From an uncultured virus (IMG/VR IMGVR_UViG_3300022753_000048) (Duplodnaviria > Heunggongvirae > Uroviricota > Caudoviricetes): 64,000 bases of DNA. Within the stretch, counting starts at the first letter, position 1, and each line of letters starts with the position of its first letter. The notes beneath the pieces were generated by a model. It did no database searches, was not told the DNA's origin, and worked only from the letters and a program-made list of their open reading frames with translations. Location: positions 1-64,000 of the IMG/VR virus record IMGVR_UViG_3300022753_000048; one strand, 5' to 3'. The position numbers were made by a program, and so were the translations under genes. Positions 15,293 through 31,187 of the stretch are shown here, piece by piece.

Positions 15293-15305
15293 AATTGTTT
15301 GATAT

Positions 15306-15380: not shown

Positions 15381-15441
15381 TAAAGTAACCGCTACACGAG
15401 TTCACCCGAGAACCAAGGGTTATATAGGTAGCACCCCATAT

Positions 15442-15516: not shown

Positions 15517-15517
15517 C

Positions 15518-15581: not shown

Positions 15582-15672
15582 TTAAATTTTTAGACTGAAA
15601 TTTGGACTGGAAAATTGTACTATTTTCTTTGTAATTCTACTTATATTTAGAAACAAAGAGGAGGAATTTTTA

Positions 15673-16161: not shown

Positions 16162-16194
16162 GTGTCGCTGGTTCAATTCCGGCCTGTCCCACCA
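16118..16194 (+). tRNA. tRNA-Phe(GAA)
   Basis: Cloverleaf, loop CTGAAAA, CCA. Confidence 0.9.
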
Positions 16195-16925
16195 GGACCA
16201 GTTGGCTTTAAAAGGTTCGTAATTTAAACCAACCATCGCCGTGGATGATAAAGCACGGCTCTTACCAAGTGAGAAATACTTGGGTGCGTCGGCTACAAGA
16301 TAGACCGAGGCGACCGTGAAGCAACGTATTCGATTGGTTTGAGTGCGTTTGTGGAGTCTATTTAGGGTTATTGGTTCATATCCACAGACCAATTAGGCGG
16401 AATGGTTTGATAATTCCGCTGAAAGAAAATTGAACTGCGGCAAGATGCCCAAGCCGCGACGTAAGGCATACCTTGAAAGTGCCTAGGGTGAAATGAGTGA
16501 GCTTGAGGGTAGCTTCGAATATCCTCCACCCGAAAATCAGAGAAAGCAGTCCTGCAAGACGAGAAGAGCTTGCTGGTCAAGACGGCGCCGAAAGTAATAA
16601 GGCGACCCGCGCCCAGTAGTGAAAGAGCTGGCGCTAGTAAGAGTGGAATTTATATAATAGGACACCGATAAGAGTTTTTAAAGTTTCTGGAGCCACTGCC
16701 GCACAATGGTCTTACTGCCTTGCTCGGTTGAAATGCGGTCTGGTGAAGGGTAAACACATAGATGAAGTTTTTGGCAGTAAAACGGCCTTGGCGTGGTTGG
16801 CAAGGAGTGGCAACGCAGACCAACTCGATAGAACTAAGCACATGACAATGGATAGTGAAAATCTATCATAGAGCGTCTAGGCGTTGAGGGTATTGAAAAA
16901 CGAACGCAAAATGGAATCTATGTTT
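16195..16925 (+). ncRNA. large (~700 nt) structured ncRNA candidate (ROOL/GOLLD size class)
   Basis: No credible ORF, elevated GC, many GNRA-capped hairpins, bracketed by tRNAs. Confidence 0.55.
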
Positions 16926-16929
16926 TTAT

Positions 16930-17006
16930 GCACGATTAGCTCAGCTGGTTAGAGCATTTGCCTTACAAGCAAGGGGTCACAGGTTCGAATCCTGTATTGT
17001 GCACCA
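16930..17006 (+). tRNA. tRNA-Val(TAC)
   Basis: Cloverleaf, loop CTTACAA, CCA. Confidence 0.92.
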
Positions 17007-17140
17007 GCATCCCAGGGTCAGCTCCCATGGCTGGCAGGAGCGCCAGCGGCCCTGGGGTAAACACCAAATCAAGGGAGAGTGATTCCAATGGCATTTAGGA
17101 TGGTTCTGTTCTAAATTCTCTCATAGGAGGTTTAGAACAA

Positions 17141-17452
17141 ATGAGCAGAAGTTACAAGAAGCACGCATATTGCGGAGATAAGAAAGATAAGGAACTCAAG
17201 AGATTGGCTAACCATAGAGTGCGTCAGTATCTCAAGAGAAATCCCAAAATAACTCTTAAACCTTCTCAATTCAAACATCTGTTTGAAAGTTGGGAAATTT
17301 GCGATTATGGTTGGCTTTGTGATTGGGAAGAGTATTGGCAACGTCAATATGATTGGTTTTACTGTGACCATTATAGACGTTGGCATCATGATGCTCCTCC
17401 AGACCCCAAAGAAGAGTACCGTACTTGGTATCACTATTACAAAATGAAGTGA
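17141..17452 (+). CDS. small basic/aromatic hypothetical protein
   Basis: AGGAGG RBS; MSRSYKKH... Confidence 0.7.
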   Translation: MSRSYKKHAYCGDKKDKELKRLANHRVRQYLKRNPKITLKPSQFKHLFESWEICDYGWLCDWEEYWQRQYDWFYCDHYRRWHHDAPPDPKEEYRTWYHYYKMK

Positions 17453-17500
17453 TTTACTTCTTAGGTCAGCCCGTTAGACCTTAAAAATGGCGGGGCACCT

Positions 17501-17577
17501 GGTGTCGGTAGTTCAATAGGTAGAACCCTGGATTGTGGTTCCAGTAGTTGCGAGTTCGATTCTCGTCCTTCACCCCA
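17501..17577 (+). tRNA. tRNA-His(GTG)
   Basis: G-1/C73, loop TTGTGGT, two acceptor-stem mismatches. Confidence 0.85.
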
Positions 17578-17579
17578 AT

Positions 17580-17667
17580 GGAAGAATGGCCGAGTGGCCG
17601 ATGGCACCATCTTGGAAAGGTGGCGAACTGAAAGGTTCCGTGGGTTCGAATCCCACTTCTTCCTCCA
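17580..17667 (+). tRNA. tRNA-Ser(GGA)
   Basis: Long variable arm, loop TTGGAAA, CCA. Confidence 0.92.
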
Positions 17668-17750
17668 TAGTATTCCAAAAATTTTACTCTTGGTTCAATT
17701 TTATGTATTTTATAAATTGAAACCCTACTTATAATTAGAAGGTGATAAGA

Positions 17751-18485
17751 ATGGTTGGAATTTATAAAATTACAAATAAAATTACAGGGCAATGTTATAT
17801 AGGGCAGTCTATTGATATTTCTCGCAGATGGCGCGCTCATCGTCAAATGGCTAAAGAGCAAAGTTATAATGCTCCATTATATATTGCAATTAGAGAATAT
17901 GGAATAGATAATTTTGACTTTGAAGTTCTTGTGGAATGTTCTCATACCGAACTAAATAGTTTAGAAAAGTATTATATTGCGTTATATGATAGTTACAATA
18001 ATGGATATAATCAAACAATTGGTGGGGCGGGTACTTCAAATTGTTGCGTAAAAATTTCTACAGAATCATTGGTTGAAATTTATGATTTGCTTATAAATAC
18101 TGATATATCTTTAGGTAAAATTGCTGAAAGGTATAATGTTGGTATTGATACAATTAGTGAAATAAATACTGGAAAAACACGTATACAAGAAGATTATACT
18201 TATCCGCTTCGTAAAAAAGAACGGTTTTGTTTTTGCTGTGGTAAAAAATTAAAGCCTTCTCAAGATAAATATTGTTCTGTAGAATGTGTAAATAAAACAA
18301 ATCGAAGCAGAAGACCTTCACGAGAGGAATTAAAAAATCTTATCAGAAGCACTCCTTTTACCACAATTGGTAAAAAGTTTGGGGTATCTGATAATGCAAT
18401 TCGTAAATGGTGCATAGCAGAAAAATTGCCCTCAAAAATCAAAGAAATCAAACTTTATTCTGATGAAGAATGGAATAAAATTTAA
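17751..18485 (+). CDS. GIY-YIG homing endonuclease with HTH/zinc-ribbon C-terminus
   Basis: GIYKITNKITGQCYIGQS...GYNQTIGG. Confidence 0.9.
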   Translation: MVGIYKITNKITGQCYIGQSIDISRRWRAHRQMAKEQSYNAPLYIAIREYGIDNFDFEVLVECSHTELNSLEKYYIALYDSYNNGYNQTIGGAGTSNCCVKISTESLVEIYDLLINTDISLGKIAERYNVGIDTISEINTGKTRIQEDYTYPLRKKERFCFCCGKKLKPSQDKYCSVECVNKTNRSRRPSREELKNLIRSTPFTTIGKKFGVSDNAIRKWCIAEKLPSKIKEIKLYSDEEWNKI

Positions 18486-18488
18486 TAT

Positions 18489-18577
18489 GCGGGTGTCGCC
18501 TAGCGGTCGATGGCGCGAGTCTCCAAAACTCGTGTGCGTAAGCACCACGTGGGTTCGAATCCCAACCACCCGTGCCA
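18489..18577 (+). tRNA. tRNA with Trp anticodon (CCA) and class II long variable arm
   Basis: CGAGT-CTCCAAA-ACTCG, variable hairpin GTGC-GTAA-GCAC, G73. Confidence 0.85.
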
Positions 18578-18840
18578 GGTCTTGTAGTTTAAGAAGAAAA
18601 CGCCTGCTGGCTGGGAAATGTGTGGTGCTACCCACCCACACCAAGACCCCATTTTTAATTGAATGATGTATCAATCATTTCAAAGTGGTCAACAGTTAAT
18701 GGATTCTGTCGTTCCTTCACTCAAATGATGCGGTCACGCTTATGCGTAGATGTAGAGATTGATACATCATTGAGTTAAAAAATTTGATTTTTGCTCAATT
18801 TTAAAGTATAATATTTATACAATGAAGCGTAAGGCTTATT

Positions 18841-18916
18841 TAGACGGACACAGCAACTATATCTTTAAAGACAACATATAATTGGGGTTTATAAACGTAT
18901 CTTTTTATCCGTCTAG
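18841..18916 (+). ncRNA. Y-RNA-like copy 4, cargo = Pro(GGG) anticodon stem-loop
   Basis: AGACGG-aca-CAGCAA...TATAA-TTGGGGT-TTATA...CCGTCT-AG. Confidence 0.8.
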
Positions 18917-18946
18917 TTAATAAAAACCTTGAAAGGAGTAACTCTA

Positions 18947-19099
18947 ATGGGCAAGGAATATATGAAGAAAACCGGCGAAGAGCTTCAGCAGTATCTTCAG
19001 TTTAGACGTCGTGGCTCTAAGGTTGAAGCCAAAAAAGGTAAGGGCGCTGTCTACAATCGCGGACGCGAGAAAGATAAGGCGCGCAAGGAAGTTGAGTGA
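18947..19099 (+). CDS. ArfA-like alternative ribosome-rescue factor (50 aa, below the ORF-track cutoff)
   Basis: GAAAGGAG RBS; YLQFRRRGSKVEAKKGKGAVYNRGREK resembles the ArfA core [21 protein letters not shown]. Confidence 0.65.
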   Translation: MGKEYMKKTGEELQQYLQFRRRGSKVEAKKGKGAVYNRGREKDKARKEVE

Positions 19100-19102
19100 T
19101 AT

Positions 19103-19178
19103 CCAGGTGTAGCTCAGCTGGTAGAGCGCGTGATTTGGGATCACGAGGCCGCAGGTTCGAGACCTGTCACTTGGACCA
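19103..19178 (+). tRNA. tRNA-Pro(TGG)
   Basis: Cloverleaf, loop TTTGGGA, CCA. Confidence 0.92.
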
Positions 19179-19234
19179 CGGTACTGAGGGTCACCGCAGC
19201 GAGTGGGGCGTATTCCACAAGACCCTCTCTAAAT

Positions 19235-19311
19235 GCCTACGTAGCTCAGATGGTTAGAGCACTACCCTCATAAGGTAGGGGTCGTAAGTTCAAATCTTAC
19301 CTTAGGCACCA
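19235..19311 (+). tRNA. tRNA-Met or Ile2 (CAT)
   Basis: Cloverleaf, loop CTCATAA, CCA. Confidence 0.9.
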
Positions 19312-19362
19312 TTAGACCTATTTGGTTCGTATCGAATGAGACATATTTGTTAAGATATTTTA

Positions 19363-19770
19363 ATGGATAGTAATTTAAGAGGAACAATAACAGAGTTAAA
19401 ATGCAAGACTTATTTTTTAGAGTTGGGATACATGGTTTCTACTCCAGAAAGTCCTGCACGGTATGATTTTATCCTTGATTATGAGGGTAAATTATTAAGA
19501 ATTCAAGTAAAAACTTCAAAGAGCGATGGAGAAAAAATTTCTTTTGAAACTTGCTCTTCGCACATTACAAGAGATGGCGCAAATCGTCGTTCTTATCAGT
19601 CAGAAATTGATTATTTTTGTACTTGGTTTAATGATGAATGTTATTTAATTCCTATAGCAGAATGTGGGTCCAGAGAAAAATCTTTGAGATTAGTCCCAAC
19701 AAAAAATGGGCAAATTAAAAACATTTGTTTTGCCAAAGATTATATTGCTAAGGAGGTTCTTAGCAAATAA
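19363..19770 (+). CDS. PD-(D/E)XK homing endonuclease (group I intron-associated family type)
   Basis: G..TE, RYDFI, RIQVKT and EIDYF motifs. Confidence 0.85.
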   Translation: MDSNLRGTITELKCKTYFLELGYMVSTPESPARYDFILDYEGKLLRIQVKTSKSDGEKISFETCSSHITRDGANRRSYQSEIDYFCTWFNDECYLIPIAECGSREKSLRLVPTKNGQIKNICFAKDYIAKEVLSK

Positions 19771-19780
19771 GTGAATTTGA

Positions 19781-19824
19781 TACGAACCAGCAGGTCGGTG
19801 GTTCGATTCCACCCGGAGGTACCA
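19781..19824 (+). pseudogene. 3' half of a tRNA-Arg(ACG)-like gene
   Basis: TACGAA-CCAGC-AGGTC-GGTGG-TTCGATT-CCACC-CGGAGGT-ACCA with no matching 5' half nearby. Confidence 0.7.
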
Positions 19825-19845
19825 TTTTAATTGGAGAGTGATTTG

Positions 19846-20160
19846 ATGAAGAGAACCAGTGCTTATTATCGTGAAATGGCTTGGCGCCATGCAATTCGTA
19901 AAAGACGTATCGCTCGTGAGGTCTATCCCGAATCTCCTGGGTGGGACTATTATCCCAACCTTCATCAGTTCTCCAAGAATAAAATTCACTGTTCCTGCCC
20001 TTTCTGTAGTGCAAAAACACGCAATAAGGGTAAGCGCAGACAGAATGCTCATGGATTCAGTCCTTCTATTAACTACAAGATTTCTGACTTGAAAAAGATT
20101 CAGCGACTTGAGTTTAGTGAGGAAGATTTTCAGAATTTTGACTTTTCTGAAAATTCGTGA
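19846..20160 (+). CDS. small basic hypothetical protein
   Basis: RBS; HQFSKNKIHCSCPFCS motif. Confidence 0.7.
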   Translation: MKRTSAYYREMAWRHAIRKRRIAREVYPESPGWDYYPNLHQFSKNKIHCSCPFCSAKTRNKGKRRQNAHGFSPSINYKISDLKKIQRLEFSEEDFQNFDFSENS

Positions 20161-20200
20161 TATAATATTTATACAATCGGTTGAGAAATCAACCGAATAT

Positions 20201-20274
20201 CCAGTATTGGTGTAATGGTAGCATTACAGATTTCCACTCTGTCGGTGAGGGTTCGAACCCCTTATACTGGTCCA
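20201..20274 (+). tRNA. tRNA-Gly(TCC)
   Basis: Loop TTTCCAC, U73, CCA. Confidence 0.88.
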
Positions 20275-20368
20275 GATATTTGCTCGGTAGCAATGAGGTA
20301 GCTCCTTATTGAGTAATGGCTCCTATCCAAGCGAGCATTTATAATAAATAGCATAGGAGGCTATTATA

Positions 20369-20767
20369 ATGAATAAAACTCAAATTGGGGATATTTCTGA
20401 ATAGAAATTTATTATTCATTGTCTGGTAAAAGATATACCAGTTTGTAAACCAATAGGTAATAATTTACCATATGATTTTGTTGTTGATTACAATGGTAAT
20501 TTGCTTAGAATTTAGGTAAAAACTGCTTATAGGGGTACTTCTCAAGATACTTGGGTATTTAATACTAGAAGCACTTCTAAAAATTACAATGAAATAACTA
20601 ACCATAATTATATTGGTTTAATTGATTATTTTGCTGTCGTTAATCCAGAATTTGAACATATTATTTTTGTTCCAATTGATAAGGCGGCGAAGGGTAGCAT
20701 GATAATTTATTATGGCGAAACTCCAAAATCAAATCAAAAGTGGTATAAAGATTTTGTTTTGTTTTAA
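20369..20767 (+). CDS. PD-(D/E)XK homing endonuclease (2 TAG, one in the catalytic QxK motif)
   Basis: GDISE*...PYDFVV...LRI*VKT, paralogous to RIQVKT (19363) and RVQVKS (30094). Confidence 0.85.
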
Positions 20768-20768
20768 T

Positions 20769-20842
20769 GGCGATATAGTTTAATGGTAAAACGAGAGCTT
20801 TGTAACCTTTCGTCTTCAGTTCGATTCTGAATATCGCCTCCA
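20769..20842 (+). tRNA. tRNA-Thr(TGT)
   Basis: Loop TTTGTAA, weak anticodon stem, CCA. Confidence 0.8.
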
Positions 20843-20920
20843 AGGGGTAAACTTGTGAATCCCGCTTAGGCATATGCAAATCAAGTAGGTCAATGACCCG
20901 ACTGACCATCGGGTCAATAT

Positions 20921-20996
20921 GTGGCTGTGGCTCAGTTGGTAGAGCATCTGATTGCCATTCAGAAGGTCGCGGGTTCAAATCCCGTCAGCCACTCCA
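20921..20996 (+). tRNA. tRNA-Gly(GCC)
   Basis: Cloverleaf, loop TTGCCAT, CCA. Confidence 0.92.
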
Positions 20997-21028
20997 GCCT
21001 TTTTCTCGCCGGGAGAAATCCGGTATAA

Positions 21029-21141
21029 AGACGCATACAGCAATTATAACTTCCTGAATAGTTTAGATGGTTTAAACACTTTCCTTCCAAGAGAGCAATC
21101 ACCGGTTCGAGTCCGGTTTTAGGACACAAATTTCGCGTCTT
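21029..21141 (+). ncRNA. Y-RNA-like copy 5, cargo = whole Gly(TCC)-like cloverleaf without CCA
   Basis: AGACGC-ata-CAGCAA...TCCTGAA..D arm..CTTTC-CTTCCAA-GAGAG..ACCGG-TTCGAGT-CCGGT-TTTAGGA...GCGTCT. Confidence 0.8.
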
Positions 21142-21159
21142 GTAATTAAAACATAACAA

Positions 21160-21990
21160 AGGAAGAAGCCTAGAGATGCTGCTTCAAGGGTGGTTCCCGG
21201 ATAGGGAAGGAGCGAGTTCCGTGCGGAATAGTTCTCCTAGCGAAACCTAAGCCTTTGTTTTATAAGTCCTCATGATGATGCCCGCATCCGAATAGGAATG
21301 GCGAGGACGCTTTCGACTGAATCATCATGCAACTTGATAAAATTTGTACAACTCGGTGCAGAGCGAATACCATCGTGCCGAGAACCCAATCCTGCCCGTG
21401 GGCGCCAGGAGTCCGAAATGCAAGCGTGTTGACGATAGCCAACACTAGGTAGAGGGCTTGTATCGTGAGATATGAGTTCCGCCTCAGAACTGAGGTCTTG
21501 GATGGAGGGGTGTGCTGACATAATCGCGTTCAAAGACACTGTCTTGTCGCTTCCGCAATAGACGCCCCTGTGGGGGAATAAGCCTTGTTAGGGATTAGTT
21601 GGTGACTGTTCCAGACCAAGGTACACCAATAAGGAAGTTTGCGTTGATGACGGAGTAATCCGGATATAAGACAAGGTTGTGGTACGAGTAGCCCAATCGC
21701 AAATAACAATAATGCTTGGATGATTATAGTTTTGTAATAGAATCAAATTGCAAAAGATATTTCTGAATGGCGGGTGAAAGTTGTAGGTAATCATTCCTAC
21801 GTGAGATTTAGAAGCATCAAGCGCTTATCCCACATTGAGTGGGTCACTACGTGGAGGTGCCAGGGAAGCTGGAAGGCTTCTGGGGCCGGAAGTCATAGGG
21901 TCGCTACCTATGGCTCAGACCGTGTCTCCTCACTGGTCGAATATGAGCGAAGGTTAAACAGTTGGTAGGGCGAAGGTCCGTACGATTTTA
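21160..21990 (+). ncRNA. large (~830 nt) structured ncRNA candidate, GOLLD-like
   Basis: Non-coding, GC-elevated, dense hairpins, inside a phage tRNA cluster. Family suggested only by size, context and recalled motifs. Confidence 0.55.
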
Positions 21991-22138
21991 TTGAGTTAAA
22001 TAGTTGCTATGAAGTCTGAATAGTTAAAGGATGGAGCAACAACCGTTTACGCTGGGAGCGGTATATAAATAGAACAGGTAAGCTCGATGAGTCTTAATGC
22101 GAGTACCTTTAGAGTGGATAAAGGTTAAACTCTTTTAT

Positions 22139-22214
22139 GGAGGGATAGTACAGCTGGTTAGTACAGGCGACTGATAATCGTCAGACCTGGGTTCAAGTCC
22201 CGGTCCTTCTACCA
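22139..22214 (+). tRNA. tRNA-Ile(GAT)
   Basis: Loop CTGATAA, CCA. Confidence 0.9.
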
Positions 22215-22531
22215 CAGGAGCACGACCTGAGACTCCTTTGTTAATTCTGAGGGTATAACCAAATCTTGTGACGATATGTGGAAATCAAGACGTACGTACC
22301 TTATACGTAACTAAGGCCCTGGCGTGGAAAGAAGCTCTAGGTAAGTGTACATATATCCTAGTTAAAGGTCCCCAGTTGCCTTTATACCTACTGGTTACGT
22401 TAGAGGATTAGGTGCCTCCATAAGTCTTTAGATGAGGTGGGGAAGAACGGAATCAAAACCTCTAGAGGGTGTAATCCCTGCTTAGTAAAACTATAAGTTT
22501 GGTCTATACTAATCTAGACCACTTAATATTT

Positions 22532-22609
22532 GCTCCGCTAGCTCAATTGGTAGTCAGCACCACCCTTTTAAGGTGGGGGTTCCGAGTTCGATCCTCGGGC
22601 GGGGCACCA
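22532..22609 (+). tRNA. tRNA-Lys(TTT)
   Basis: Loop CTTTTAA, CCA. Confidence 0.9.
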
Positions 22610-22611
22610 TA

Positions 22612-22723
22612 AGGCGCTTGCAGCAATTCTACTTCTTTCTGAAATAGTTTAAAGGTTAAACAACAAACTTGTAATTTGTCATTGACGGTTCGAATCCGTT
22701 TTTTAGAACGAAAAGGCGCCTAG
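22612..22723 (+). ncRNA. Y-RNA-like copy 6, cargo = whole Thr(TGT)-like cloverleaf without CCA
   Basis: AGGCGC-ttg-CAGCAA...ACAAA-CTTGTAA-TTTGT..GACGG-TTCGAAT-CCGTT...GCGCCT-AG. Confidence 0.8.
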
Positions 22724-22745
22724 AATGTCTTAAAAGGAGTTTTCT

Positions 22746-22988
22746 ATGAAACTGACTAAAACTACTGAGATTGATGCTTTTCGTGAAGCAATCAATAAGT
22801 GCCAGGGAGACGTATGGCTTGAATCCATTTATGGTGATAAGTATAATCTAAAGTCTTTGTTTTCTCAGCATATGGCACTTGATGCAATGTTAGCGGAAAA
22901 TGGCGATGATTTAGAGCTATTTTGTTCTATTCCTGCAGAAGAAGGTTATTTCTTCAAGTTCTTTCATGAACATCCTGAGGTTCTGTGA
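22746..22988 (+). CDS. small hypothetical protein (possibly HPr-like fold)
   Basis: AAAGGAG RBS; C.GDV.L.S..GD..NLKS motif. Confidence 0.65.
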   Translation: MKLTKTTEIDAFREAINKCQGDVWLESIYGDKYNLKSLFSQHMALDAMLAENGDDLELFCSIPAEEGYFFKFFHEHPEVL

Positions 22989-22997
22989 CCTCAATAT

Positions 22998-23071
22998 TGG
23001 GGATTGTTGTAATGGTAGCAATCGGGCCTTTGAAGCCTAAAGTTGGAGTTCAAATCTCTAATCCCCAGCCA
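22998..23071 (+). tRNA. tRNA-Gln(TTG)
   Basis: U1-A72, loop CTTTGAA, CCA. Confidence 0.88.
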
Positions 23072-23137
23072 CGGCCCAAGGCCGTTTGTCGCAGTAGGTT
23101 TAGCCGCTACTGTTATATGAAACGGCCTTCTTTATAT

Positions 23138-23213
23138 TGCCGGATAGTCTAATTGGTTAAAACACCGTCCTCTGAAGTCGGCTTTCTTGGTTCGAGTCCA
23201 AGTCTGGCAACCA
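23138..23213 (+). tRNA. tRNA-Gln(CTG)
   Basis: U1-A72, loop CTCTGAA, CCA. Confidence 0.88.
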
Positions 23214-23238
23214 GGGCGAAAGCCCTCCTTTCTTAACA

Positions 23239-23386
23239 TAGACCCGTTTACAGCAAATTTTTCTGATAGAGGAAAATTGATACAACTTTTACTTGTATGC
23301 CTATTTGGTGTTGAAGGTGTTCGATAAGGAGAACAAACAACGTTCACTGGAGCCTTCCATTATTGTTACAGTTCTTATGGGTCTAG
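23239..23386 (+). ncRNA. Y-RNA-like copy 7, cargo includes a Lys(TTT) anticodon stem-loop
   Basis: AGACCC-gttta-CAGCAA...ATACAA-CTTTTAC-TTGTAT...GGGTCT-AG. Confidence 0.72.
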
Positions 23387-23396
23387 ACTTGATTAT

Positions 23397-23473
23397 GGCA
23401 CTGTCGTCAAGTCCGGTAAGGCAGCGGTCTGCAAAATCGCGATACGCAGGTTCAAATCCTGCCAGTGCCTCCA
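23397..23473 (+). tRNA. tRNA-Cys(GCA)
   Basis: Loop CTGCAAA, U73, CCA. Confidence 0.9.
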
Positions 23474-23546
23474 GTGTCAAGAGGTTTAATATAGCTCTTG
23501 ACGTCCTATCATTAGCATAGGTGGGAGTACGGAACCTCCCTTTTAT

Positions 23547-23623
23547 CCTCTTGTAGCTCAATAGGTTAGAGCCCGCGACTTATAATCGCGAGGTTGGTAG
23601 TTCAATCCTACCCAGGAGGACCA
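23547..23623 (+). tRNA. tRNA-Ile(TAT)
   Basis: CGCGA-CTTATAA-TCGCG, CCA. Confidence 0.88.
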
Positions 23624-23739
23624 TAGACGCTTACAGCAACTTTTCAAGATTTCTATGTTAAAAGTTCGAGTCTTTTTATTTCAGCCATCAAATTTGAAAT
23701 ATAGCACAAGTGGTAGTGCAAGAAACAAAAAGCGTCTAG
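23624..23739 (+). ncRNA. Y-RNA-like copy 8, YrlA-type circularly permuted tRNA cargo
   Basis: AGACGC-tta-CAGCAA..TTTCT..T arm AAAAG-TTCGAGT-CTTTT, closed acceptor TATTTCA-gccatcaaatt-TGAAATA, D arm GCAC-AAGTGGTA-GTGC, AGAAA..GCGTCT-AG. Confidence 0.85.
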
Positions 23740-23817
23740 AAATTTGAAAAATTATAAATTTCGATTTATAATATATATATCCAATTAAGGAAAACATTCA
23801 AAACAAAGGAGAAAATT

Positions 23818-24171
23818 ATGATTAAGAATCCTAGCTATCGCATTTATGAAACCCCCAACAAGGTTATTGCTGTTTCTAGCTTCGCAGGTCAGACTGTACG
23901 CGGTGTCGCTAAGTGCAATCCTGCAGATGAGTTTGACCCCGAGAAGGGCGCCGCTCTGGCTGCTGCTCGATGCGGTGTAAAGATTGCTGAGAAGCGAGTA
24001 AAGCGAGCCTATTCCAAGGTCGATGAAGCTAAGGCTATTGTTGATGCAGCAATCGCTCATTTGTCTGAGATGATGAAGTATCAGGCTGATGCTGAAGCAA
24101 ATCTGAATGGTGCCCAGTTTGAGCTGGAAGCCACTCTGGCCTGGATTTGCGGTAGAGACGAAGCAATCTGA
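23818..24171 (+). CDS. hypothetical protein
   Basis: Early promoter and AAAGGAG RBS; AKC.P.DEFD.EKG..LA motif. Confidence 0.75.
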   Translation: MIKNPSYRIYETPNKVIAVSSFAGQTVRGVAKCNPADEFDPEKGAALAAARCGVKIAEKRVKRAYSKVDEAKAIVDAAIAHLSEMMKYQADAEANLNGAQFELEATLAWICGRDEAI

Positions 24172-24204
24172 TTTTTCATGTGGGGCCGCAAGGCTCCACC
24201 AGAT

Positions 24205-24300
24205 GGATGGTTACCGAAATGGTTATAACGGCCTAGTCTTGAAAACTTGTGTGTCGGCTAACGAACCGACATGGGGGTTCGAGTCCCTCACCATCCGCCA
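24205..24300 (+). tRNA. tRNA-Ser(TGA)
   Basis: Long variable arm, loop CTTGAAA, G73, CCA. Confidence 0.9.
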
Positions 24301-24428
24301 GAATCCGCTCGGATGGCCATGAGTCCAGCGCGACGGCGCCATGTGAGTTGCACATGAGGAGCGGTATATAAATGAATATGGGCCACGGTGGGCTTGGTAG
24401 ACTCTTCAAGGAAAAACCCACATCATTT

Positions 24429-24516
24429 GGACCGGTGGGGTAATGGTATCCCAAAGGATTGCTAATCCTTCCTACTCGAGAGGGTAGTCTGAGTTCGATT
24501 CTCGGTCGGTCCGCCA
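24429..24516 (+). tRNA. tRNA-Ser(GCT)
   Basis: Long variable arm, loop TTGCTAA, CCA. Confidence 0.9.
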
Positions 24517-25009
24517 TGGGAATGGTTCTTCGCCCTGCTTGACTGGCAATTGGAAGCGTTTGAGATGAACGAGAAATCTCCGTGGTTAAAGGGGAGGAGC
24601 GACGTTATAGGTAAACTCCCTGGTTTCAGCTAACTGGTCGAGACCAATAGAGGCACAAGTCAGCCAACCAGTTCCGAAATTTCAAAATGAAAAAGTTTGA
24701 AAATTTTGAAGTTTTGAGTTATAATATATACATAAGGTTAGAAAAGAATAAGAAACGCTGAGTCATAGACCACTCTTGAACCTCATACATAGAAGTTGGC
24801 GGAATGGCAGGTTAGGTTCTTATTTGGATGTCTTTGGTTTCTTAGGGGAATTGTGAGGCGTTGCCCTATTTGGTCAATTTCATCAAGCCTTATGGAATGA
24901 AAGTTTCCTTATCCAAAGCCCGCGGGAGATTTAAAGACGGACTGAGCATCAGTAATTCTGATTGGAACTTGAAGAGGAAGTCGTTGGCTGACGTAAGGCC
25001 CATGTAAAT

Positions 25010-25086
<77 letters not shown>

Positions 25087-25590
25087 TTGGGTTTAAGGTA
25101 GTAGTAAATTCCCTAAAAACTATACCAAACGTAACTGAGCGTGCGACAGTAGGAAAATCCACGGCAAAATCAGTCGGCTTCGGCAACGGAAGCATGGTCA
25201 AAGTTGGTGTTGTGCTTGTTGAGTAACAAACGATAAAATACTCCGGAAGCGAAAAAATAATAAGCAGTTCCGTTAAAGTGATAGTCGCGAATATCATCTG
25301 CAATCCCATCAAAAACTTTTCTTTTCTGCCAGAAGAACCTGGCTCGGATTGGTAAACCGTCGACATGGGTCAATGCCAATTACGAATACAACAGTACCAA
25401 AAAGCGCTAGAATTCCGGCTATAAGTTTATTTGGGAGCCGTAGAAAGATTAGAAAAGAATTTTGATTTGGGCTGATCGAAAGATCTTGGCTCACCTTAGG
25501 AGGGACAAGGAATATCCTTAGTGAGAATCCTTGCGGCCGGCTGTGTCGGTTGAAATCACAGCTACCGCGCAGGTAAGGTAGAATCCTGCT
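25087..25590 (+). ncRNA. ~500-nt structured ncRNA candidate
   Basis: Non-coding inter-tRNA segment with multiple hairpins. Confidence 0.4.
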
Positions 25591-25594
25591 ATAT

Positions 25595-25672
25595 GGTACC
25601 ATGGTGTAAACTGGTAAACACATCAGCCTTTCAAGCTGAAGAGTCCGGGTTCGATTCCCGGTGGTATCACCA
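25595..25672 (+). tRNA. tRNA-Glu(TTC)
   Basis: Loop CTTTCAA, CCA. Confidence 0.9.
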
Positions 25673-26545
25673 GATAGCTTGTCTATCCAGGCTTGGCTGA
25701 TAGACTCCCGTAAGGGAGAGGAAAGGGGAAACTGACAAAGCCCCGCCGTGACGAGCGGTAAACCAAGCAAAACGTGCCGGGACTGGCTGAGGTTGAAAAG
25801 ACCTTTTCGGATACGTCCCCCGTGTCCTAACTCAAACTTGATGATGTGAAGTGAGCTTTCGAGGGCCAACTGGCAGAGAAAGTTCGTTGCCGCAAGCGAC
25901 TGGCATCAATGCAAAAGGATGGTTTGAGGTACAGTAAACCGTAGGAAGGTTAGTTCGAGTTTAGCTAACAAGGGCGACTTCCAGTTCATCTGCTATGGTG
26001 GATGAATCCGTGTGAGTACGAAAGCAAAGGAAAGCACACGCAGGCGGGTAGCATTTTTGCACTCAAAAGGTGTGAAAACTACGATAAGAGTCTGTCTGCT
26101 GTCACATAACTTAGTGTAGGTTCGAGTCCTACCGGACGCCCCAAACTTAAACTTCGGGGCAAAGCTACATTTGCCTCTTATATGCGTCCGTAGCTCAATA
26201 GGAAGAGCAATCTGTGTTGAAAACAGATGTTATAAGTAAAAATCTCTTATTGGGAACGATGAAAAGTGTCCTAATCCCTTAGTGGTAAGCAATAAGGGAT
26301 GCAAGGTGTCACAAGCATCTTGTATTTGATTGAAGCGAAACTAGAACGAGGTCGCAGTCGTGAACAGCCCGCAAGGTTGATAGTGGAGTGATAATCGAGT
26401 AAGCGTTCCTTTAAAGGCGTAAGCAAGCCTGTGGTCATTGTGGTGTGACTACAAATTGCGGGCATGAGCGGTACTACCCAAAAGGTAGTGGAAAAGCACT
26501 CAAAACATAAAAGTGTTAAGCCGTAGCAATTCTAGGTATATTCTC
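25673..26545 (+). ncRNA. pair of structured ncRNA candidates joined by permuted tRNA halves
   Basis: Both parts carry a CYCAAAAGG-capped hairpin near their 3' ends (~26060, ~26478). A tRNA 3' half at 26116-26143 precedes its 5' half at 26184-26228. Confidence 0.55.
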
Positions 26546-26635
26546 AACCTATATTTTTCTTACCAATATTTAGTAACCTCTTTACCTTTGAGTAAGGCTA
26601 GTCGATGTGGATCTTCGGAATCGGTTACTATATAT

Positions 26636-26711
26636 GGGGCCGTGGCGCAATTGGGAGCGCAATTCCCTTGCAAGGAAAAGGTTGTGGGTTCAAGTCCCAT
26701 CGGTTCCACCA
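26636..26711 (+). tRNA. tRNA-Ala(TGC)
   Basis: G3-U70, loop CTTGCAA, CCA. Confidence 0.92.
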
Positions 26712-26946
26712 TAGAGGTCCTCCTTGGTATTGAGGGCGCCCATTAAAGCATAAACTACCAAATGTGAATGAGAGCGTAGACTAGAACACCGGTTTAAAAA
26801 CCATAATAGGAAAAATCTACGATGACGACGGTCGCGCCACAGAATAGGGGCGATATCCGGTTCTTCAAGGATGCTGAGGCAAAACAGCGTAATTAAAGAC
26901 AGACGAAGAGGAGTTTGCGGTTGCTTCCACCTAACCGCATTGATTT

Positions 26947-27030
26947 GGGTAGGTAGCGAATCGGCAAACGCGGCGGACTGTAAATCCGTTCTTTTTAAGG
27001 TAGTGGGCTCGACACCCACCCTGCCCACCA
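26947..27030 (+). tRNA. tRNA-Tyr(GTA)
   Basis: Loop CTGTAAA, extended variable arm, CCA. Confidence 0.9.
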
Positions 27031-27368
27031 CCGTGGTTAGCACGGCTTAACATCGATGTTCCGGTAATCAATCCGGTCCAGGTAATTAGTATGTTTCTCC
27101 CTGGGATAACAAAATTACAGAGGAAACTACTGCTCCTCAACTTGCGGATTGGCCGAGAGGTGCGAATCCGACGAGATGCTTACACTATGGGAGGAAATGT
27201 AGCCGGAAAAGTTAGTCCTCAACTGCGTGCACAGCAGTAAAAGCGGTACATAGGAGTCATAACCGCTGGTGTTTAGTGTCCAAATTAGTTCGACGAGAAC
27301 GAGCCCGCCTCGGGGATGAAAGAGGTGCCCGGTGGGAGGGTAGTCCGGACATAGAAATATCCCACGCT
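27031..27368 (+). ncRNA. ~340-nt structured ncRNA candidate
   Basis: Non-coding and hairpin-rich; shares a GGTAATCA.TCC element with the 21160-21990 RNA. Confidence 0.4.
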
Positions 27369-27371
27369 TAT

Positions 27372-27453
27372 GGGGGATTGCTGGAATAGGTAGACGGGGT
27401 GGTCTCAAAAACCACTGTTATTCGTATCGGTTCAAGTCCGATATCCCCTACCA
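27372..27453 (+). tRNA. tRNA-Leu(CAA)
   Basis: Loop CTCAAAA, A73, CCA. Confidence 0.88.
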
Positions 27454-27474
27454 ATAATATGGAGGTATTTAATT

Positions 27475-28092
27475 ATGCCATACATTTATAAAATTACTAA
27501 TGATGTAAATGGAAAGATTTACATTGGAAAGACCATTAAGACCATTGAAAGTAGATGGAAAGAACATTTATCAGACTACAACAAAAGTAGAAATGAAAAA
27601 CGCCCTTTATATGATGCAATGATAAAATATGGTATTGAACATTTTTCTATTGAGAAAATTGAGGAATGTTCTACTGAAAATTTAAATGAGCGAGAAAGAT
27701 ATTGGATTGAATTTTTTGGTTCGTTTAAATTTGGTTATAATGCAACAATTGGAGGAGATGGTAGACCTTTTCTGGATTATGATTTAGTAAATCAACTTTA
27801 TTCTGAAGGATATAATTGTTCAGAAATTGAAAAGATTACTGGATATTCTGATAAAAGTATAGCTTTAATTCTTTCTAACAGTGGAATAACTAAGCAACAA
27901 CGTCAAGCTAATTGTGGTCAATGGCAAAATAAAATTGTAAAAATGCTTGATAAAAATACGGGAGAAATTATTAAAGTTTTCCCTAAAATCATTGATGCCT
28001 ATTCTTTTTTAGGTAAACGAAAAAGTAGTCATATTCAAGAAGTTTGTTTAGGTAAACGGAAAACCGCTTATGGATATAGATGGAGTTATTAA
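27475..28092 (+). CDS. GIY-YIG/NUMOD1 homing endonuclease
   Basis: YIYKITNDVNGKIYIGKT...GYNATIGGDG...KTAYGYRW. Confidence 0.9.
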   Translation: MPYIYKITNDVNGKIYIGKTIKTIESRWKEHLSDYNKSRNEKRPLYDAMIKYGIEHFSIEKIEECSTENLNERERYWIEFFGSFKFGYNATIGGDGRPFLDYDLVNQLYSEGYNCSEIEKITGYSDKSIALILSNSGITKQQRQANCGQWQNKIVKMLDKNTGEIIKVFPKIIDAYSFLGKRKSSHIQEVCLGKRKTAYGYRWSY

Positions 28093-28176
28093 TTTCGGGT
28101 ACCAAAATTTGAAATTTATGTAAATTTAATGTATAATATATTTACAAAATGAATGAAGAAAAACTGTCAATTATTT

Positions 28177-28307
28177 TAGATGCGTGCAGCAACTATACTG
28201 TTAACTGACTTAAAATCAGAGGGTTATGGGTTCGAGTCCCATCTTGACGGAGACACCTCCGCTGAGTAGCTCAAGTGGTAGAGTTTTAAAACACAAAACG
28301 CATCTAG
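28177..28307 (+). ncRNA. Y-RNA-like copy 9, permuted tRNA cargo with Leu(TAA) anticodon loop
   Basis: AGATGC-gtg-CAGCAA..CTGA-CTTAAAA-TCAG..ATGGG-TTCGAGT-CCCAT..CGGAG-acac-CTCCG..D arm GCTC-AAGTGGTA-GAGT..GCATCT-AG. Confidence 0.85.
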
Positions 28308-28350
28308 CTCCTTTCCTAAGAAACAGACAAAACTGTTTTTGTATTCCATT

Positions 28351-28483
28351 TAGGTGCATACAGCAATTATTTAGTTAATGCTTGAGGAGCACGTACATTG
28401 TGGGTTCGAATCCCATCACTCTTCCCAAATGAAGAGTGTGGCGGAATTGGTAGACGCGCGTAAATAACACCAAATGCATCTAG
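28351..28483 (+). ncRNA. Y-RNA-like copy 10, permuted tRNA-Leu(GAG)-like cargo
   Basis: AGGTGC-ata-CAGCAA..TGC-TTGAGGA-GCA..GTGGG-TTCGAAT-CCCAT-CACTCTTC-ccaaat-GAAGAGTG-TGGCGGAATTGGTAGACGC..GCATCT-AG. Confidence 0.85.
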
Positions 28484-28617
28484 TTTTCCTTGAAGGCGAA
28501 GCTGAAAAAGGGTTTGTAGTAAGTCCTCTCAAACCAGAAACCCTGCGACCTCGAAAGAGGGCAACACCCAAGTGCGTAAGGCATTGTACGCTGTTAGGAG
28601 AGGATTCAGTTGAATAT

Positions 28618-28691
28618 TGCGAGGGTGGAGCAAAGGTAGCTCATCTGGCTCATTACCAGAAGACAACGTTCGAATCGTTCGCTCGCAACCA
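28618..28691 (+). tRNA. tRNA-Met(CAT), initiator-like, divergent
   Basis: TGGAGC D-arm start, loop CTCATTA, ACCA. Confidence 0.7.
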
Positions 28692-28694
28692 TAT

Positions 28695-28767
28695 TGCAGG
28701 GTCGTCTAAAGGTAGGACGCTAGACTCATTACCTAGTAATCTGGGTTCGACCCCAGCCGTGCACCCA
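28695..28767 (+). tRNA. degenerate tRNA (CAT)
   Basis: Cloverleaf with mismatches, loop CTCATTA. Confidence 0.55.
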
Positions 28768-29088
28768 ACCACGTTTCAAATTCTTAGGATGTGGCCCTAA
28801 GCGCGTTAACACGGATTTGTAAGTTAAACTACCACTTCCCGCCAGAGGAGTTATCGTTGGTTACCTCGCGCGGTGTATGTGGCTTAGCGGAAAACGCGGT
28901 ATAAGGAAGCGAAGTAAACTTACTAATAGGTTGACAACTCCTATGACTTATAAATAAGTTGAGCGAAAGCGAGCCGGATGGTAAACAACAAATTGAGGTT
29001 AATGACACCGGTACCTCTCCGCGGACTAAGCAAACAAATTGCGGCCAATAGAATTCCGCTACCGCTTTTTATTTATAGGAGTGATTTA

Positions 29089-29310
29089 ATGCCTTAGGTT
29101 GATTTTTCATTGTGTCAATTACTTGAAGAAAATATTGCTGATGAAGCAGAAGCTCGTCAAGGTTATTATAAGATTCTTCATTGTTTTGAAAATGAACTTA
29201 GTGAACGCGAAAAGCAAGAAGTTCGTAAAATCATTGCCGAAGAGTTAAAACATTCTGATATGCTTGCAAAGATGATTTATCGAAGAACTGGTATTGTTGC
29301 GGAGAGTTAA
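29089..29310 (+). CDS. small ferritin-like half-bundle protein (one TAG)
   Basis: MP*VDFSLCQLLEENIADEAEARQGY...IIAEELKH. Confidence 0.7.
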
Positions 29311-29311
29311 A

Positions 29312-29599
29312 ATGCAAGATGAAGTGATTGAGTTCATTAACCGAAGATTTTCAAAAGATTGTAATTGGCGCGATGGCAATTGTTATTACTTTGCCTTGAT
29401 TCTTAAAGATAGATTTCCAGAAAGTCGGATTGTTTACGATGCGATTTATGGACATTTCTTTGTAGAATATAAAGGTAAGTGCTATGACCATTCTGGTGAA
29501 TTAGTTCTTCCTGGTGGCACCTATGCAGTTTACTGGGATGAATTTGATAAATATGACACTCTTGTTAAACAACGAATTATTAGGGATTGTATAATGTAA
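29312..29599 (+). CDS. hypothetical protein (papain-like C...H...D)
   Basis: GNCYYFA...GHF...YD. Confidence 0.6.
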   Translation: MQDEVIEFINRRFSKDCNWRDGNCYYFALILKDRFPESRIVYDAIYGHFFVEYKGKCYDHSGELVLPGGTYAVYWDEFDKYDTLVKQRIIRDCIM

Positions 29600-29601
29600 A
29601 T

Positions 29602-29677
29602 GGTTCCATCTTCTAATCGGTTAGGAAACGGCCCTCTCAAGGCTGAAATTGGAGTTCGAACCTCCATGGAATCACCA
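29602..29677 (+). tRNA. tRNA-Glu(CTC)
   Basis: Loop CTCTCAA, CCA. Confidence 0.88.
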
Positions 29678-29811
29678 GTACGCCGAGTCCGAGTGATAGG
29701 ACAAATGACGTGTGACTGCGCCAACAGAAAAAGAATCACACGCTAAAACCTGTTATTTTGGCGGATAGCAGGTCAAGGGTTTAGAAAACGGCTTTACCTT
29801 GAATTATAAAT

Positions 29812-29887
29812 GGAGACGTAGCCCAACGGAAGAGGCAATAGGTTTAGGCCCTATCCAGTGTGGGTTCGAATCCCACCGTCTTCACCA
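29812..29887 (+). tRNA. tRNA-Leu(TAG), short variable arm
   Basis: Loop TTTAGGC, CCA. Confidence 0.88.
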
Positions 29888-29934
29888 AGGCTCCGGCTCC
29901 GGCGCCGAAAGGTTTCGGAGCAATTTTTCTAAAT

Positions 29935-30009
29935 GGCTTAGTAGCACAGTGGTAGTGCACTCGCTTGGTAAGCGAGAGGTCGTGGATTCGAATTCCGCCT
30001 AAGCCTCCA
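29935..30009 (+). tRNA. tRNA-Thr(GGT)
   Basis: Loop TTGGTAA, CCA. Confidence 0.9.
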
Positions 30010-30093
30010 AACTGAGACCACTTGACAAAGTTTTCCGAAGTTTCTGTATTTAATATTTATTACTTTTACTTAATAATACAAGGAGATGATAAA

Positions 30094-30528
30094 ATGCTAA
30101 ATACAGTTACTATTGGAGATATAGGAGAGGCACAAGCTATTGCATTATTCACAAAGAAACAAATTCCAGTTTCTAAACCTTTAACTAATAATGTTCGTTA
30201 TGATTTAATTATTGAAAAAGATAATAAGTTATATCGAGTACAAGTTAAAAGTACTGCAAATATTAAAGATGGTAAAATGGAATTTGCCACAAAGACTACT
30301 AATTATACGAAAGGTACTTGGTCTAGTAATCATTATTCTAAAAATGAAGTAGACATATTTTTCCTTTATTGTTTAGAAAATGATTGGTGTGGTTTATTTA
30401 TTCCAGATAACGAAGATATTCCCATTACTTTATTTATAAGGACTATACCTCCTAAAAATAATCAAAAAGTTGGTATTCGGTTAATGGAAGATTATTCTTT
30501 TGATAAACAATTTGCATCGTTAACTTAA
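30094..30528 (+). CDS. PD-(D/E)XK homing endonuclease; stop codon lies inside tRNA-Lys
   Basis: GDIGE, RYDLI, RVQVKS, EVDIF. Confidence 0.85.
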   Translation: MLNTVTIGDIGEAQAIALFTKKQIPVSKPLTNNVRYDLIIEKDNKLYRVQVKSTANIKDGKMEFATKTTNYTKGTWSSNHYSKNEVDIFFLYCLENDWCGLFIPDNEDIPITLFIRTIPPKNNQKVGIRLMEDYSFDKQFASLT

Positions 30529-30589
30529 TTGGTAGAGTAGGACACTCTTAATGTCAAGGTTGGGGGTTCAAATCCCTCACGATGCACCA
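30514..30589 (+). tRNA. tRNA-Lys(CTT)
   Basis: Loop CTCTTAA, CCA. Confidence 0.88.
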
Positions 30590-30755
30590 AAAAATCCCGC
30601 TTCTGCTCTCAAAATGACGGCGCCACTGAGAGCTAGAGCGCCGCAGGAATGGTTTGCGGGATACCATTCCACAAGACTTGCCAGTTGGATGCGATTTTGA
30701 GTGCGACGGTTGAGGTCAAAACGTGTATGGTTTCGCGAGGGTTAAACTGGTATAT

Positions 30756-30833
30756 GTACCCGTAGCTCAGTAGGACAGCAGCAACTGCCTTCTAAGCAGT
30801 CGGTCAGTGGTTCGAATCCACTCGGGTATACCA
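30756..30833 (+). tRNA. tRNA-Arg(TCT)
   Basis: Loop CTTCTAA, CCA. Confidence 0.9.
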
Positions 30834-30979
30834 GGCGATGAAATATGCGTTGTCCAGGCAGTTCATATGGAGCCACTACCACGGTTTGCAGGAGTCAAAG
30901 TAAGCTACGTAATCGTGGTGAATGAGAGGGTTACCGTATGCCTGGAATACCGCTTGAATGGCGAGAAAACTGCATATAT

Positions 30980-31054
30980 ACAGGATTAGCTCAATGGAGA
31001 GAGTAAGCGGCTACGAACCGTTAGATAGGGGTTCGACTCCCTTATCCTGTACCA
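30980..31054 (+). tRNA. tRNA-Arg(ACG)
   Basis: Loop CTACGAA, CCA. Confidence 0.9.
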
Positions 31055-31187
31055 GAAAATTCTGCCTTAAGAATCTCATCGCCACCTCCATGAGATTACA
31101 GGCAGTTTTTATATACCGTAGGGGAAAATCGCATGATTTTCCTCTACTTTTTTTTGGTTTGTTTTACTTAGAATTAGAGGTGATTTA

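Follow-up and report, generated by a model that had tools for sequence, protein, structure and literature searches.

The DNA analysed here (referred to as the window) comprises the first 64 kb of a viral contig of 122,525 bases, which is estimated to be 82% complete. ARAGORN detected 36 tRNA genes between positions 15146 and 31054 of the window, all of them on the plus strand, and a strong terminator-like hairpin at 31118-31147 marks the end of this array. The CCA end is encoded in 34 of the 36 tRNAs; U occupies position -1 in 34/36 and A-U positions -2/-1 in 28/36, the T content of the intergenic DNA being 28.5%. Rfam searches placed a ROOL RNA (21328-21999, 296.4 bits) and a drum RNA (16311-16437, 46.4 bits) within the array, as well as an RT-2 element outside of it (930-1151). 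GOLLD and ROOL, two abundant kinds of phage RNA, assemble into hollow cages, and a GOLLD RNA is likewise found among the tRNA genes: it directly follows tRNA-Glu (25595-25672), and tRNA-Ala starts at 26636, ~85 nt further 3'. Between 25673 and 26635 ARAGORN called no ordinary tRNA or tmRNA. The longest plus-strand ORF overlapping 25500-26700 measures 77 aa (26513-26746), and a minus-strand ORF of 186 aa (25309-25869) overlaps the GOLLD 5' domain.

A GOLLD RNA with an occupied hinge

Assignment to GOLLD (Rfam RF02032) is based on a cmscan match at 26039-26550, which covers model positions 1-416 with an E-value of 7.7e-41 and a score of 152.8 bits, barely above the curated cut-off of 150 bits. 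The relatives that were scanned scored 173, 159.9, 158.1, 158.1, 156.3 and 156.2 bits, and one of them 149.1 bits. The locus is thus a member of the GOLLD family. The motif CYCAAAAGG, which the initial annotation had recognized as a hairpin shared by both flanks of the element under study, is indeed present at 26062 and 26477 (four matches in the window versus 1.47 expected), and each of these two copies forms a hairpin loop of the GOLLD model. The hairpin at 26039-26100 moreover exhibits compensatory changes when compared to the relative L140.

The sequence further upstream lies outside the Rfam model. It is nevertheless homologous in all eight relatives compared, with identities across ~25684-26038 ranging from 238/331 to 331/361, and it is represented in the same RNA-library contigs as the remainder of the RNA (25687-26128, 25699-26430 and 25649-26071, at depths of 57, 217 and 810, respectively). 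Judged by this homology and by the shared contigs, the block 25673-26038 represents the variable domain at the 5' end of GOLLD. Since the flanking blocks are thereby the two domains of one GOLLD RNA, the element between them does not bridge two large non-coding RNA candidates, as had originally been proposed. Rather, the cmscan alignment shows that it fills the hinge of GOLLD, i.e. the unpaired model positions 63-123. The features of the locus are as follows:

25673..26038, plus strand: GOLLD 5' (variable) domain, outside the Rfam model, homologous in 8/8 relatives compared
26039..26100, plus strand: GOLLD hairpin preceding the hinge, loop CUCAAAAGG, Rfam model positions 1-62 (cmscan)
26101..26115, plus strand: single-stranded lead-in, in which UUAGU (26111-26115) replaces nt 44-48 of the tRNA variable region, nt 48 corresponding to 26115
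26116..26132, plus strand: T arm with a 5-bp stem and the loop UUCGAGU, C56 corresponding to 26123; 5/5 pairs in 12/12 sequences
26133..26139, plus strand: 3' strand of the acceptor stem (nt 66-72), CGGACGC, 7/7 paired with 26184-26190
26140..26143, plus strand: C73 (26140) and encoded CCA (26141-26143); N-CCA at the same place in 11/12 distinct sequences
26144..26183, plus strand: A/U-rich spacer of 40 nt with a hairpin at 26156-26177 and A-U at -2/-1, as judged from folding and from relatives
26184..26190, plus strand: 5' strand of the acceptor stem (nt 1-7), GCGTCCG, with a predicted RNase P site 5' of 26184
26191..26208, plus strand: U8-A9 and D arm, stem 26193-26196/26205-26208, loop AAUAGGAA; stem invariant in 12/12 sequences
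26209..26228, plus strand: anticodon-like arm with a 5-bp stem (26210-26214/26224-26228) and a 9-nt loop; stem 5/5 in 12/12 sequences
26229..26550, plus strand: conserved GOLLD 3' domain, Rfam model positions about 105-416 (cmscan)

A circularly permuted tRNA-like module

Direct reading of the sequence bore out all coordinates given initially for the T arm, the segment CGGACGC-C-CCA, the 40-nt spacer, GCGTCCG, the D arm and the ATCTGT hairpin. The T arm reads GTAGG-TTCGAGT-CCTAC, and the D loop provides A15 (26198) as well as G18 and G19 (26201-26202). For the anticodon-like arm, an alternative of 6 bp with a 7-nt loop can be drawn in the window copy only. A pattern requiring this permuted succession of T loop, CCA and D arm matched the window once and none of 100 shuffled versions, which upholds the order originally described. 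When folded alone, the 119-nt stretch adopts the four helices and the spacer hairpin (MFE -37.4 kcal/mol, z -3.22), and none of 200 shuffles was as stable. An ordinary tRNA gene was rejected as an explanation on account of the missing ARAGORN call and of the Rfam tRNA model (RF00005), which yields no more than a partial match of 24.8 bits at 26188-26253, below the threshold of 29. The GOLLD body is attached between nt 43 and 44, and it is there that the chain of the tRNA fold opens; the tRNA's own ends are joined via the spacer. The chain runs from the GOLLD 5' domain through the tRNA variable region and the T arm to the 3' strand of the acceptor stem with N73-CCA and into the 40-nt spacer, and returns through the 5' strand of the acceptor stem, the D arm and the anticodon-like arm to the GOLLD 3' domain. 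RNAalifold additionally proposes a fifth helix that might close the module (ACUUA, 26109-26113, with UAAGU, 26233-26237); this helix lacks compensatory changes, and it overlaps a motif that all GOLLDs conserve.

When viral and metagenome contigs were scanned with patterns, the permuted module was recovered at the same place in 16 other contigs, giving 12 distinct sequences. Pairing is complete in each of these 12 sequences for the acceptor stem (7/7) as well as for the T stem and the anticodon-like stem (5/5 each). The acceptor stem occurs in eight versions (3' strands CGGACGC, CACCGCC, CCCGCGT, CAGCCGC, CCGGCGT, CCGGTGT, CCCGGGT and CTTGGCG), each of which is accompanied by its exact partner. 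Of the 23 pairs considered, 13 are changed on both sides among the relatives, including six of the seven acceptor pairs and one pair of the T stem; compensatory changes are also observed in the anticodon-like stem. Homologues and covariation, which the initial annotation had named as a check on its reading, thus speak for the fold. In the MAFFT alignment (A2), 97.8% of 273 cells contain standard pairs, the few unpaired cells stemming from two rows that MAFFT misplaced in the anticodon stem, as compared to 32-56% when the partners are slid by one to three columns. RNAalifold predicted the same four helices unprompted.

The 13 pairs changed on both sides also include two tertiary contacts, 15-48 and 19-56, which exist only in L-shaped tRNA. 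The Levitt pair 15-48 combines C48 with G15 in six sequences and U48 with A15 in the other six, while the elbow pair 19-56 is G19-C56 in ten sequences and C19-G56 in two. The latter type with swapped elbow, represented by two sequences from four contigs, has the T loop UUGGAAU and the D loop AGUGCUA. The covariation of the helices together with that of both tertiary pairs establishes an L-shaped tRNA mimic that is tethered to GOLLD via its variable region, and the element is almost certainly a real tRNA-shaped module of GOLLD.

The same observations bear on the possibility, likewise raised at the outset, that an assembly rearrangement created the unusual order, or that the element is a functionless leftover from the decay of two tandem tRNA genes. 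Duplication in tandem and two subsequent deletions can generate a permuted order. However, the order recurs in separate assemblies, namely in 16 other contigs, compensatory change has preserved every helix along with two tertiary pairs, and the acceptor stem is shared with none of the tRNAs in the window, none of which is notably similar to the module in a comparison for a parent tRNA. We therefore consider both a rearrangement and a remnant scarcely credible as explanations of what is seen today, although decay of tandem tRNAs may have been the origin of the module.

Two known RNA classes share elements of this architecture and had to be weighed. Permuted ssrA genes have the same succession of an acceptor 3' piece with CCA, an intervening segment and the 5' strand, and one could accordingly suspect a two-piece tmRNA or else a two-piece large RNA outside the known families. 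ARAGORN, which calls permuted tmRNAs, reported none, though, and the module has G3-C70 and C73 instead of G3-U70 and A73. The upstream and downstream pieces, in turn, are the 5' and the 3' domain of GOLLD rather than parts of an unknown RNA. In agreement with the initial annotation, which had denied it this identity for lack of the alanine determinants, membership in tmRNA was rejected (no ARAGORN call, no G3-U70/A73, a body made of GOLLD), and neither version of this explanation retains any appreciable probability. The second class are YrlA-type Y RNAs, which carry a tRNA-like module next to a stem that binds Ro60/Rsr. Their order of arms is identical, and the YrlA model (RF02553) aligns to the T-acceptor-D part with 30.1 bits (E 2.9e-4) in the window and with 30.3, 35 and 37.7 bits in three relatives. 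All of these scores remain far under the cut-off of 69 bits, however, and there are mismatches in the model's outer stem, whose 5' strand is taken by the GOLLD hairpin. Moreover, the break in the chain lies in the variable region instead of the anticodon arm, a local anticodon-like hairpin is present, and searches of the 122.5-kb contig (82% complete) matched neither TROVE/Ro60 nor RtcB; a CCA-adding enzyme was not matched in this contig either. Membership in YrlA was rejected on the basis of the scores (30-38 versus 69 bits) and the missing Ro60/RtcB genes and Ro60-binding stem, and we regard this explanation as very improbable.

To what extent the module resembles a decoding tRNA can be judged by putting its halves into normal order in silico. 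ARAGORN then called a tRNA in 11 of 11 cases, but with anticodons assigned to Ser (four), Pro (five), Leu (one) and Ile (one). The anticodon-like loops measure 9 nt in ten sequences, 11 nt in one and 7 nt in one, and there is no conserved anticodon. The scatter of the calls and the variable loop lengths indicate that the module does not decode; it is a fixed, non-decoding structural part of GOLLD in a clade from gut and rumen.

The confinement to this clade emerges from the distribution of the module. The least biased sample is a scan whose sole anchor was a GOLLD 3'-domain motif and which returned 19 loci: seven were unrelated DNA and 12 belonged to the GOLLD clade, and all of the latter carry the module. 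In one GOLLD scan, three of 18 loci (L002, L005 and L017) belong to the clade with the module. Lake-type GOLLDs (7/12 loci scanned with Rfam) score 289-302 bits over 411-412 nt and have no insert, and the module is therefore a trait of the gut and rumen clade and not of GOLLD generally. Further viral scans mostly hit tandem tRNAs. Among the matches listed, a scan spanning T loop to D arm gave at least 120 stretches, at least 12 of which passed the acceptor filter and at least two of which are family members, and a scan spanning CAAAAG to T loop gave at least 116 stretches with at least one family member. The region 25673-26560 had no blastn match among isolate phage records, and two patterns detected no host or prophage copy (0 loci) in the bacterial genome collection.

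Within the clade, the acceptor stem evolves unusually fast. Compared with the relative L143, the window shows 89-93% identity in either GOLLD domain (320/361 for the 5' and 296/317 for the 3' domain) and no difference in the T arm, D arm and lead-in, and still five of the seven acceptor pairs differ. L145 is equally distant from the window overall, yet it has kept the acceptor stem of the window in 7/7 pairs. The terminal pair and the discriminator occur in the combinations G1-C72 with C73 or A1-U72 with G73. As far as these comparisons reach, the acceptor stem and the discriminator turn over far faster than their surroundings, and the changes are always compensated.

Possible processing of the module

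The initial annotation had further proposed that RNase P and RNase Z excise the spacer to yield a two-piece, CCA-ended RNA. Features of the sequence provide indirect support for a cut. An N73-CCA sequence, either C-CCA or G-CCA, follows the acceptor stem in 11 of the 12 sequences, and the spacers of the relatives, although varying in length from 16 to 45 nt, end with A-U at -2/-1 in 11/11, a leader that is also found on the tRNAs of the array. Good bacterial RNase P substrates combine a 7-bp acceptor stem, coaxial with a T stem of 5 bp, with an undisturbed elbow, CCA at the 3' end and U at -1. All of these features, i.e. the 7-bp acceptor on a 5-bp T stem, the T/D elbow, N73-CCA and U(-1), are present in the module. 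Their significance as marks of RNase P substrates is supported in part by the work on YrlA (PMC4201824). Seven of 11 spacers contain a hairpin of 7-8 bp with a covarying stem and a 7-nt loop that ends with CAC. This weighs against cleavage, as it would be surprising in a stretch that is simply thrown away, and it suggests that the spacer itself has a function, which might be to halt 3' trimming.

The following scenario could be envisioned. The host enzymes that mature tRNAs and that would release GOLLD from the flanking tRNA genes may treat the module as a pre-tRNA; as GOLLD abuts tRNA-Glu and lies ~85 nt from tRNA-Ala, the releasing enzymes would reach the internal site, too. RNase P would cut between 26183 and 26184, 5' of G26184, and 3' exonucleases would trim the freed spacer towards CCA26143, making a second endonuclease unnecessary. 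The product would be a two-piece GOLLD consisting of ~25673-26143 and 26184 to ~26550, which the 7-bp acceptor helix and the D/T elbow would keep attached to each other, and the free CCA end would presumably reside inside the cage. We give RNase P nicking in vivo an even or slightly better chance on the strength of these signals. The complete proposal, namely a circularly permuted, non-decoding tRNA module in the GOLLD hinge that is nicked by tRNA maturation into a two-piece, CCA-ended GOLLD, may with equal justification be believed or doubted. Aminoacylation of the CCA end appears unlikely at best.

RNA-library contigs cover GOLLD at depths of 57-810, which speaks for its expression; with regard to cleavage they point in another direction. 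These libraries are represented by assembled contigs alone, in which RNA ends are not visible. The contig 25699-26430 (X2), whose mean depth of 217 compares with 17.4 for the neighbouring contig, crosses the spacer, and so does a second RNA-library contig, 26046-26332 (X4). Continuity across the spacer in X2 and X4 means that an uncut form of GOLLD exists or that DNA was present in the libraries. In library X1, contigs end at 26128 and restart at 26194 with nothing over the spacer, a gap that a mixture of strains with different acceptor stems would likewise introduce into the assembly and that is therefore not counted in favour of a cut. In addition, the acceptor stem of one relative (L142/L146/L294) is closed by a 6-nt loop and lacks CCA, and a free end can therefore not be essential to the family. 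Excision of the spacer, as first proposed, thus keeps its indirect support from the conserved N73-CCA and the A-U leader and has the spanning contigs, the relative with the 6-nt loop and the covarying spacer hairpin against it.

The main rival to nicking is the same tethered tRNA mimic that is never cut and in which the spacer simply keeps the acceptor helix closed, as in YrlA of S. Typhimurium. Such a mimic could offer an L-shaped grip to a partner that binds tRNA, e.g. the ribosome, a modification enzyme, RNase P acting as a binder, or a host anti-phage nuclease for which it would be a decoy, and CCA and the A-U leader would be retained because the partner binds them or as an ancestral feature that is only slowly being lost. 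The bridging contigs X2 and X4, the loop and missing CCA of L142, and the covarying hairpin in 7/11 spacers all agree with an intact RNA. Most YrlA RNAs are uncleaved, according to PMC4201824, and ribosomes bind GOLLD in pull-downs, as mentioned in the discussion by Kretsch et al. (PMC12286853). On the other hand, a module that is never cut does not readily explain why CCA at nt 74-76 (11/12) and the A-U leader (11/11) persist despite eight acceptor versions and divergent spacers, the more so as the A-U leader also marks the true RNase P substrates of the array. Furthermore, it is the 7-bp acceptor stem that makes YrlA of M. smegmatis cleavable, as stated in PMC4201824. Weighing these points, we assign to the uncut mimic a substantial probability, albeit one short of even.

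If nicking does take place, the tethered ends would be a 5'-phosphorylated G1 and a free N73-CCA-3'. One may speculate that nicked subunits furnish the 10- to 14-mer cage with an interior ring of tethered acceptor ends, which are charged or engage ribosomes or elongation factors, and that turnover of the acceptor stem sets or switches recognition by host enzymes or provides escape from a host nuclease. A role of this kind would be the first concrete biochemical activity to be assigned to GOLLD; we view this extension as a long shot. Regardless of its fate, a module with tRNA fold in the hinge offers a precise and cheap experimental entry to the function of GOLLD.

Comparison with known RNAs

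The likeness to two-piece tmRNA and to permuted tRNA genes, which the initial annotation had pointed out, holds with regard to gene order. Keiler, Shapiro and Williams reportedly described in 2000 that two-piece tmRNA arises from circularly permuted ssrA genes. There, as in the present module, the 3' strand of the acceptor stem and CCA are located upstream of the 5' strand, and in tmRNA the intervening segment is removed. However, alanine identity and a tag frame are both missing from the GOLLD module, ARAGORN does not call it, and it is GOLLD that makes up its body. Soma et al. reportedly described permuted tRNA genes in the red alga Cyanidioschyzon merolae in 2007. They also place the 3' half before the 5' half and join the acceptor ends by an intervening sequence. 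This sequence is removed by RNase P and 3' processing. In contrast to the module, whose outer ends run into GOLLD and whose anticodon loop is non-functional, the algal RNAs are circularised and become ordinary decoding tRNAs.

YrlA of M. smegmatis is a further relevant example. In Chen et al. 2014 (PMC4201824), it is presented as having the order T arm, acceptor, D arm and as the only YrlA with a 7-bp acceptor stem; RNase P cleaves it both in vitro and in vivo, CCA is acquired, and the resulting two halves remain associated. The GOLLD module shares with it the T arm, the acceptor stem closed by a loop and the D arm, in this order, along with the 7-bp acceptor. The two differ in that CCA is added in YrlA and encoded in the module, which has no Ro60-binding stem. 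In addition, the module breaks at the variable region, has a separate anticodon-like hairpin and is a domain of an RNA of ~880 nt.

As to GOLLD itself, cryo-EM of other members revealed assembly into a cage of 10 to 14 subunits, and ordinary tRNAs are already known in the hinge or linker (J13/15), as documented in Kretsch et al. 2025 (PMC12286853) and PMC12990946. The latter, a review from 2026, cites Morgado et al. 2020 for a Mycolicibacterium tRNA-Phe that is located in J13/15 and points into the cage. The GOLLDs described there agree with the window in family, place of insertion and setting within a phage tRNA array, whereas their linker tRNAs have the ordinary 5'-to-3' order and their excision would separate the domains. 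In the GOLLD of the window, the tRNA is permuted, tethered by its variable region and devoid of a conserved anticodon loop, and processing would nick the RNA yet leave it clasped. The module keeps every signal for pre-tRNA processing, yet its wiring would translate them into a nick and not into release of a tRNA. Hence, not every tRNA of the GOLLD linker is cargo destined for excision. Canonical tRNAs in GOLLD linkers are already in print; our literature search yielded no description of a permuted tRNA form in GOLLD, although older GOLLD papers or supplements could mention one. Among the papers that mention both GOLLD and permuted RNA are ones on permuted group II introns. By analogy, the occurrence of the same design in tmRNA and YrlA suggests that circular permutation could be a general way of putting a tRNA end on a large RNA.

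Acceptor stem, spacer and possible closing helix of the permuted module

Comparison of the permuted tRNA-like module in the GOLLD hinge with its counterparts in related contigs revealed extensive turnover of the acceptor stem, which is formed by positions 26133-26139 and 26184-26190 of the window. Five of the seven pairs are altered between the window and the related contig L143, while the remainder of the two GOLLD RNAs is 89-93% identical. The stem is nevertheless the same in the window and in L145, a relative as distant as L143, and eight versions of it occur among the 12 distinct sequences.

The spacer that separates the two acceptor strands carries a hairpin in six relatives (L144, L149, L283, L289, L295 and L300), corresponding to window positions 26156-26177. 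Its stem of 7-8 bp covaries among these spacers, and the 7-nt loop ends in CAC (UAAGCAC, AAACCAC, UUAGCAC, UUCGCAC). The hairpin in the window itself has a loop of 6 nt, unlike the CAC loops of the relatives.

In addition, ACUUA (26109-26113) is complementary to UAAGU (26233-26237), and this candidate helix could close the module much as a stem does in a tRNA with a long variable arm. Most relatives keep these pairs unchanged, and no compensatory change is seen.

Candidates outside the GOLLD clade

Two further viral contigs, L082 and L084, which are unrelated to this clade and were among the matches listed by a broad T loop-to-D arm pattern scan, contain a T arm, acceptor strands complementary at 7/7 positions with a closing loop of 18-23 nt, and then a D arm. 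An ordinary anticodon arm is absent downstream in both, and Rfam did not detect YrlA in either at the gathering threshold. These loci may represent further permuted tRNA mimics.

The tRNA array and other RNAs of the window

The following RNA features were annotated in the window:
930-1151, RT-2 RNA (Rfam, 120.8 bits), outside the tRNA array
15442-15516, tRNA with anticodon CTA (labelled Pyl by ARAGORN), an amber suppressor
16311-16437, drum RNA (Rfam, 46.4 bits; cut-off 43), flanked by tRNA-Phe and tRNA-Val
21328-21999, ROOL RNA (Rfam, 296.4 bits), within the tRNA array that also holds GOLLD

Rfam also places ROOL in three relatives (L142, 259-848; L144, 35-669; L149, 352-972), at a distance of ~1 kb or less from GOLLD. 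Thus, the two cage-forming RNAs are neighbours in the genomes of these phages.

The RNase P leader of the array tRNAs (15146-31054) is very uniform for a phage array: the nucleotide at -1 is U in 34 of the 36 genes, and positions -2/-1 read A-U in 28. Finally, the CTA tRNA hints at possible decoding of TAG as an amino acid by this phage, as is the case in some gut phages.
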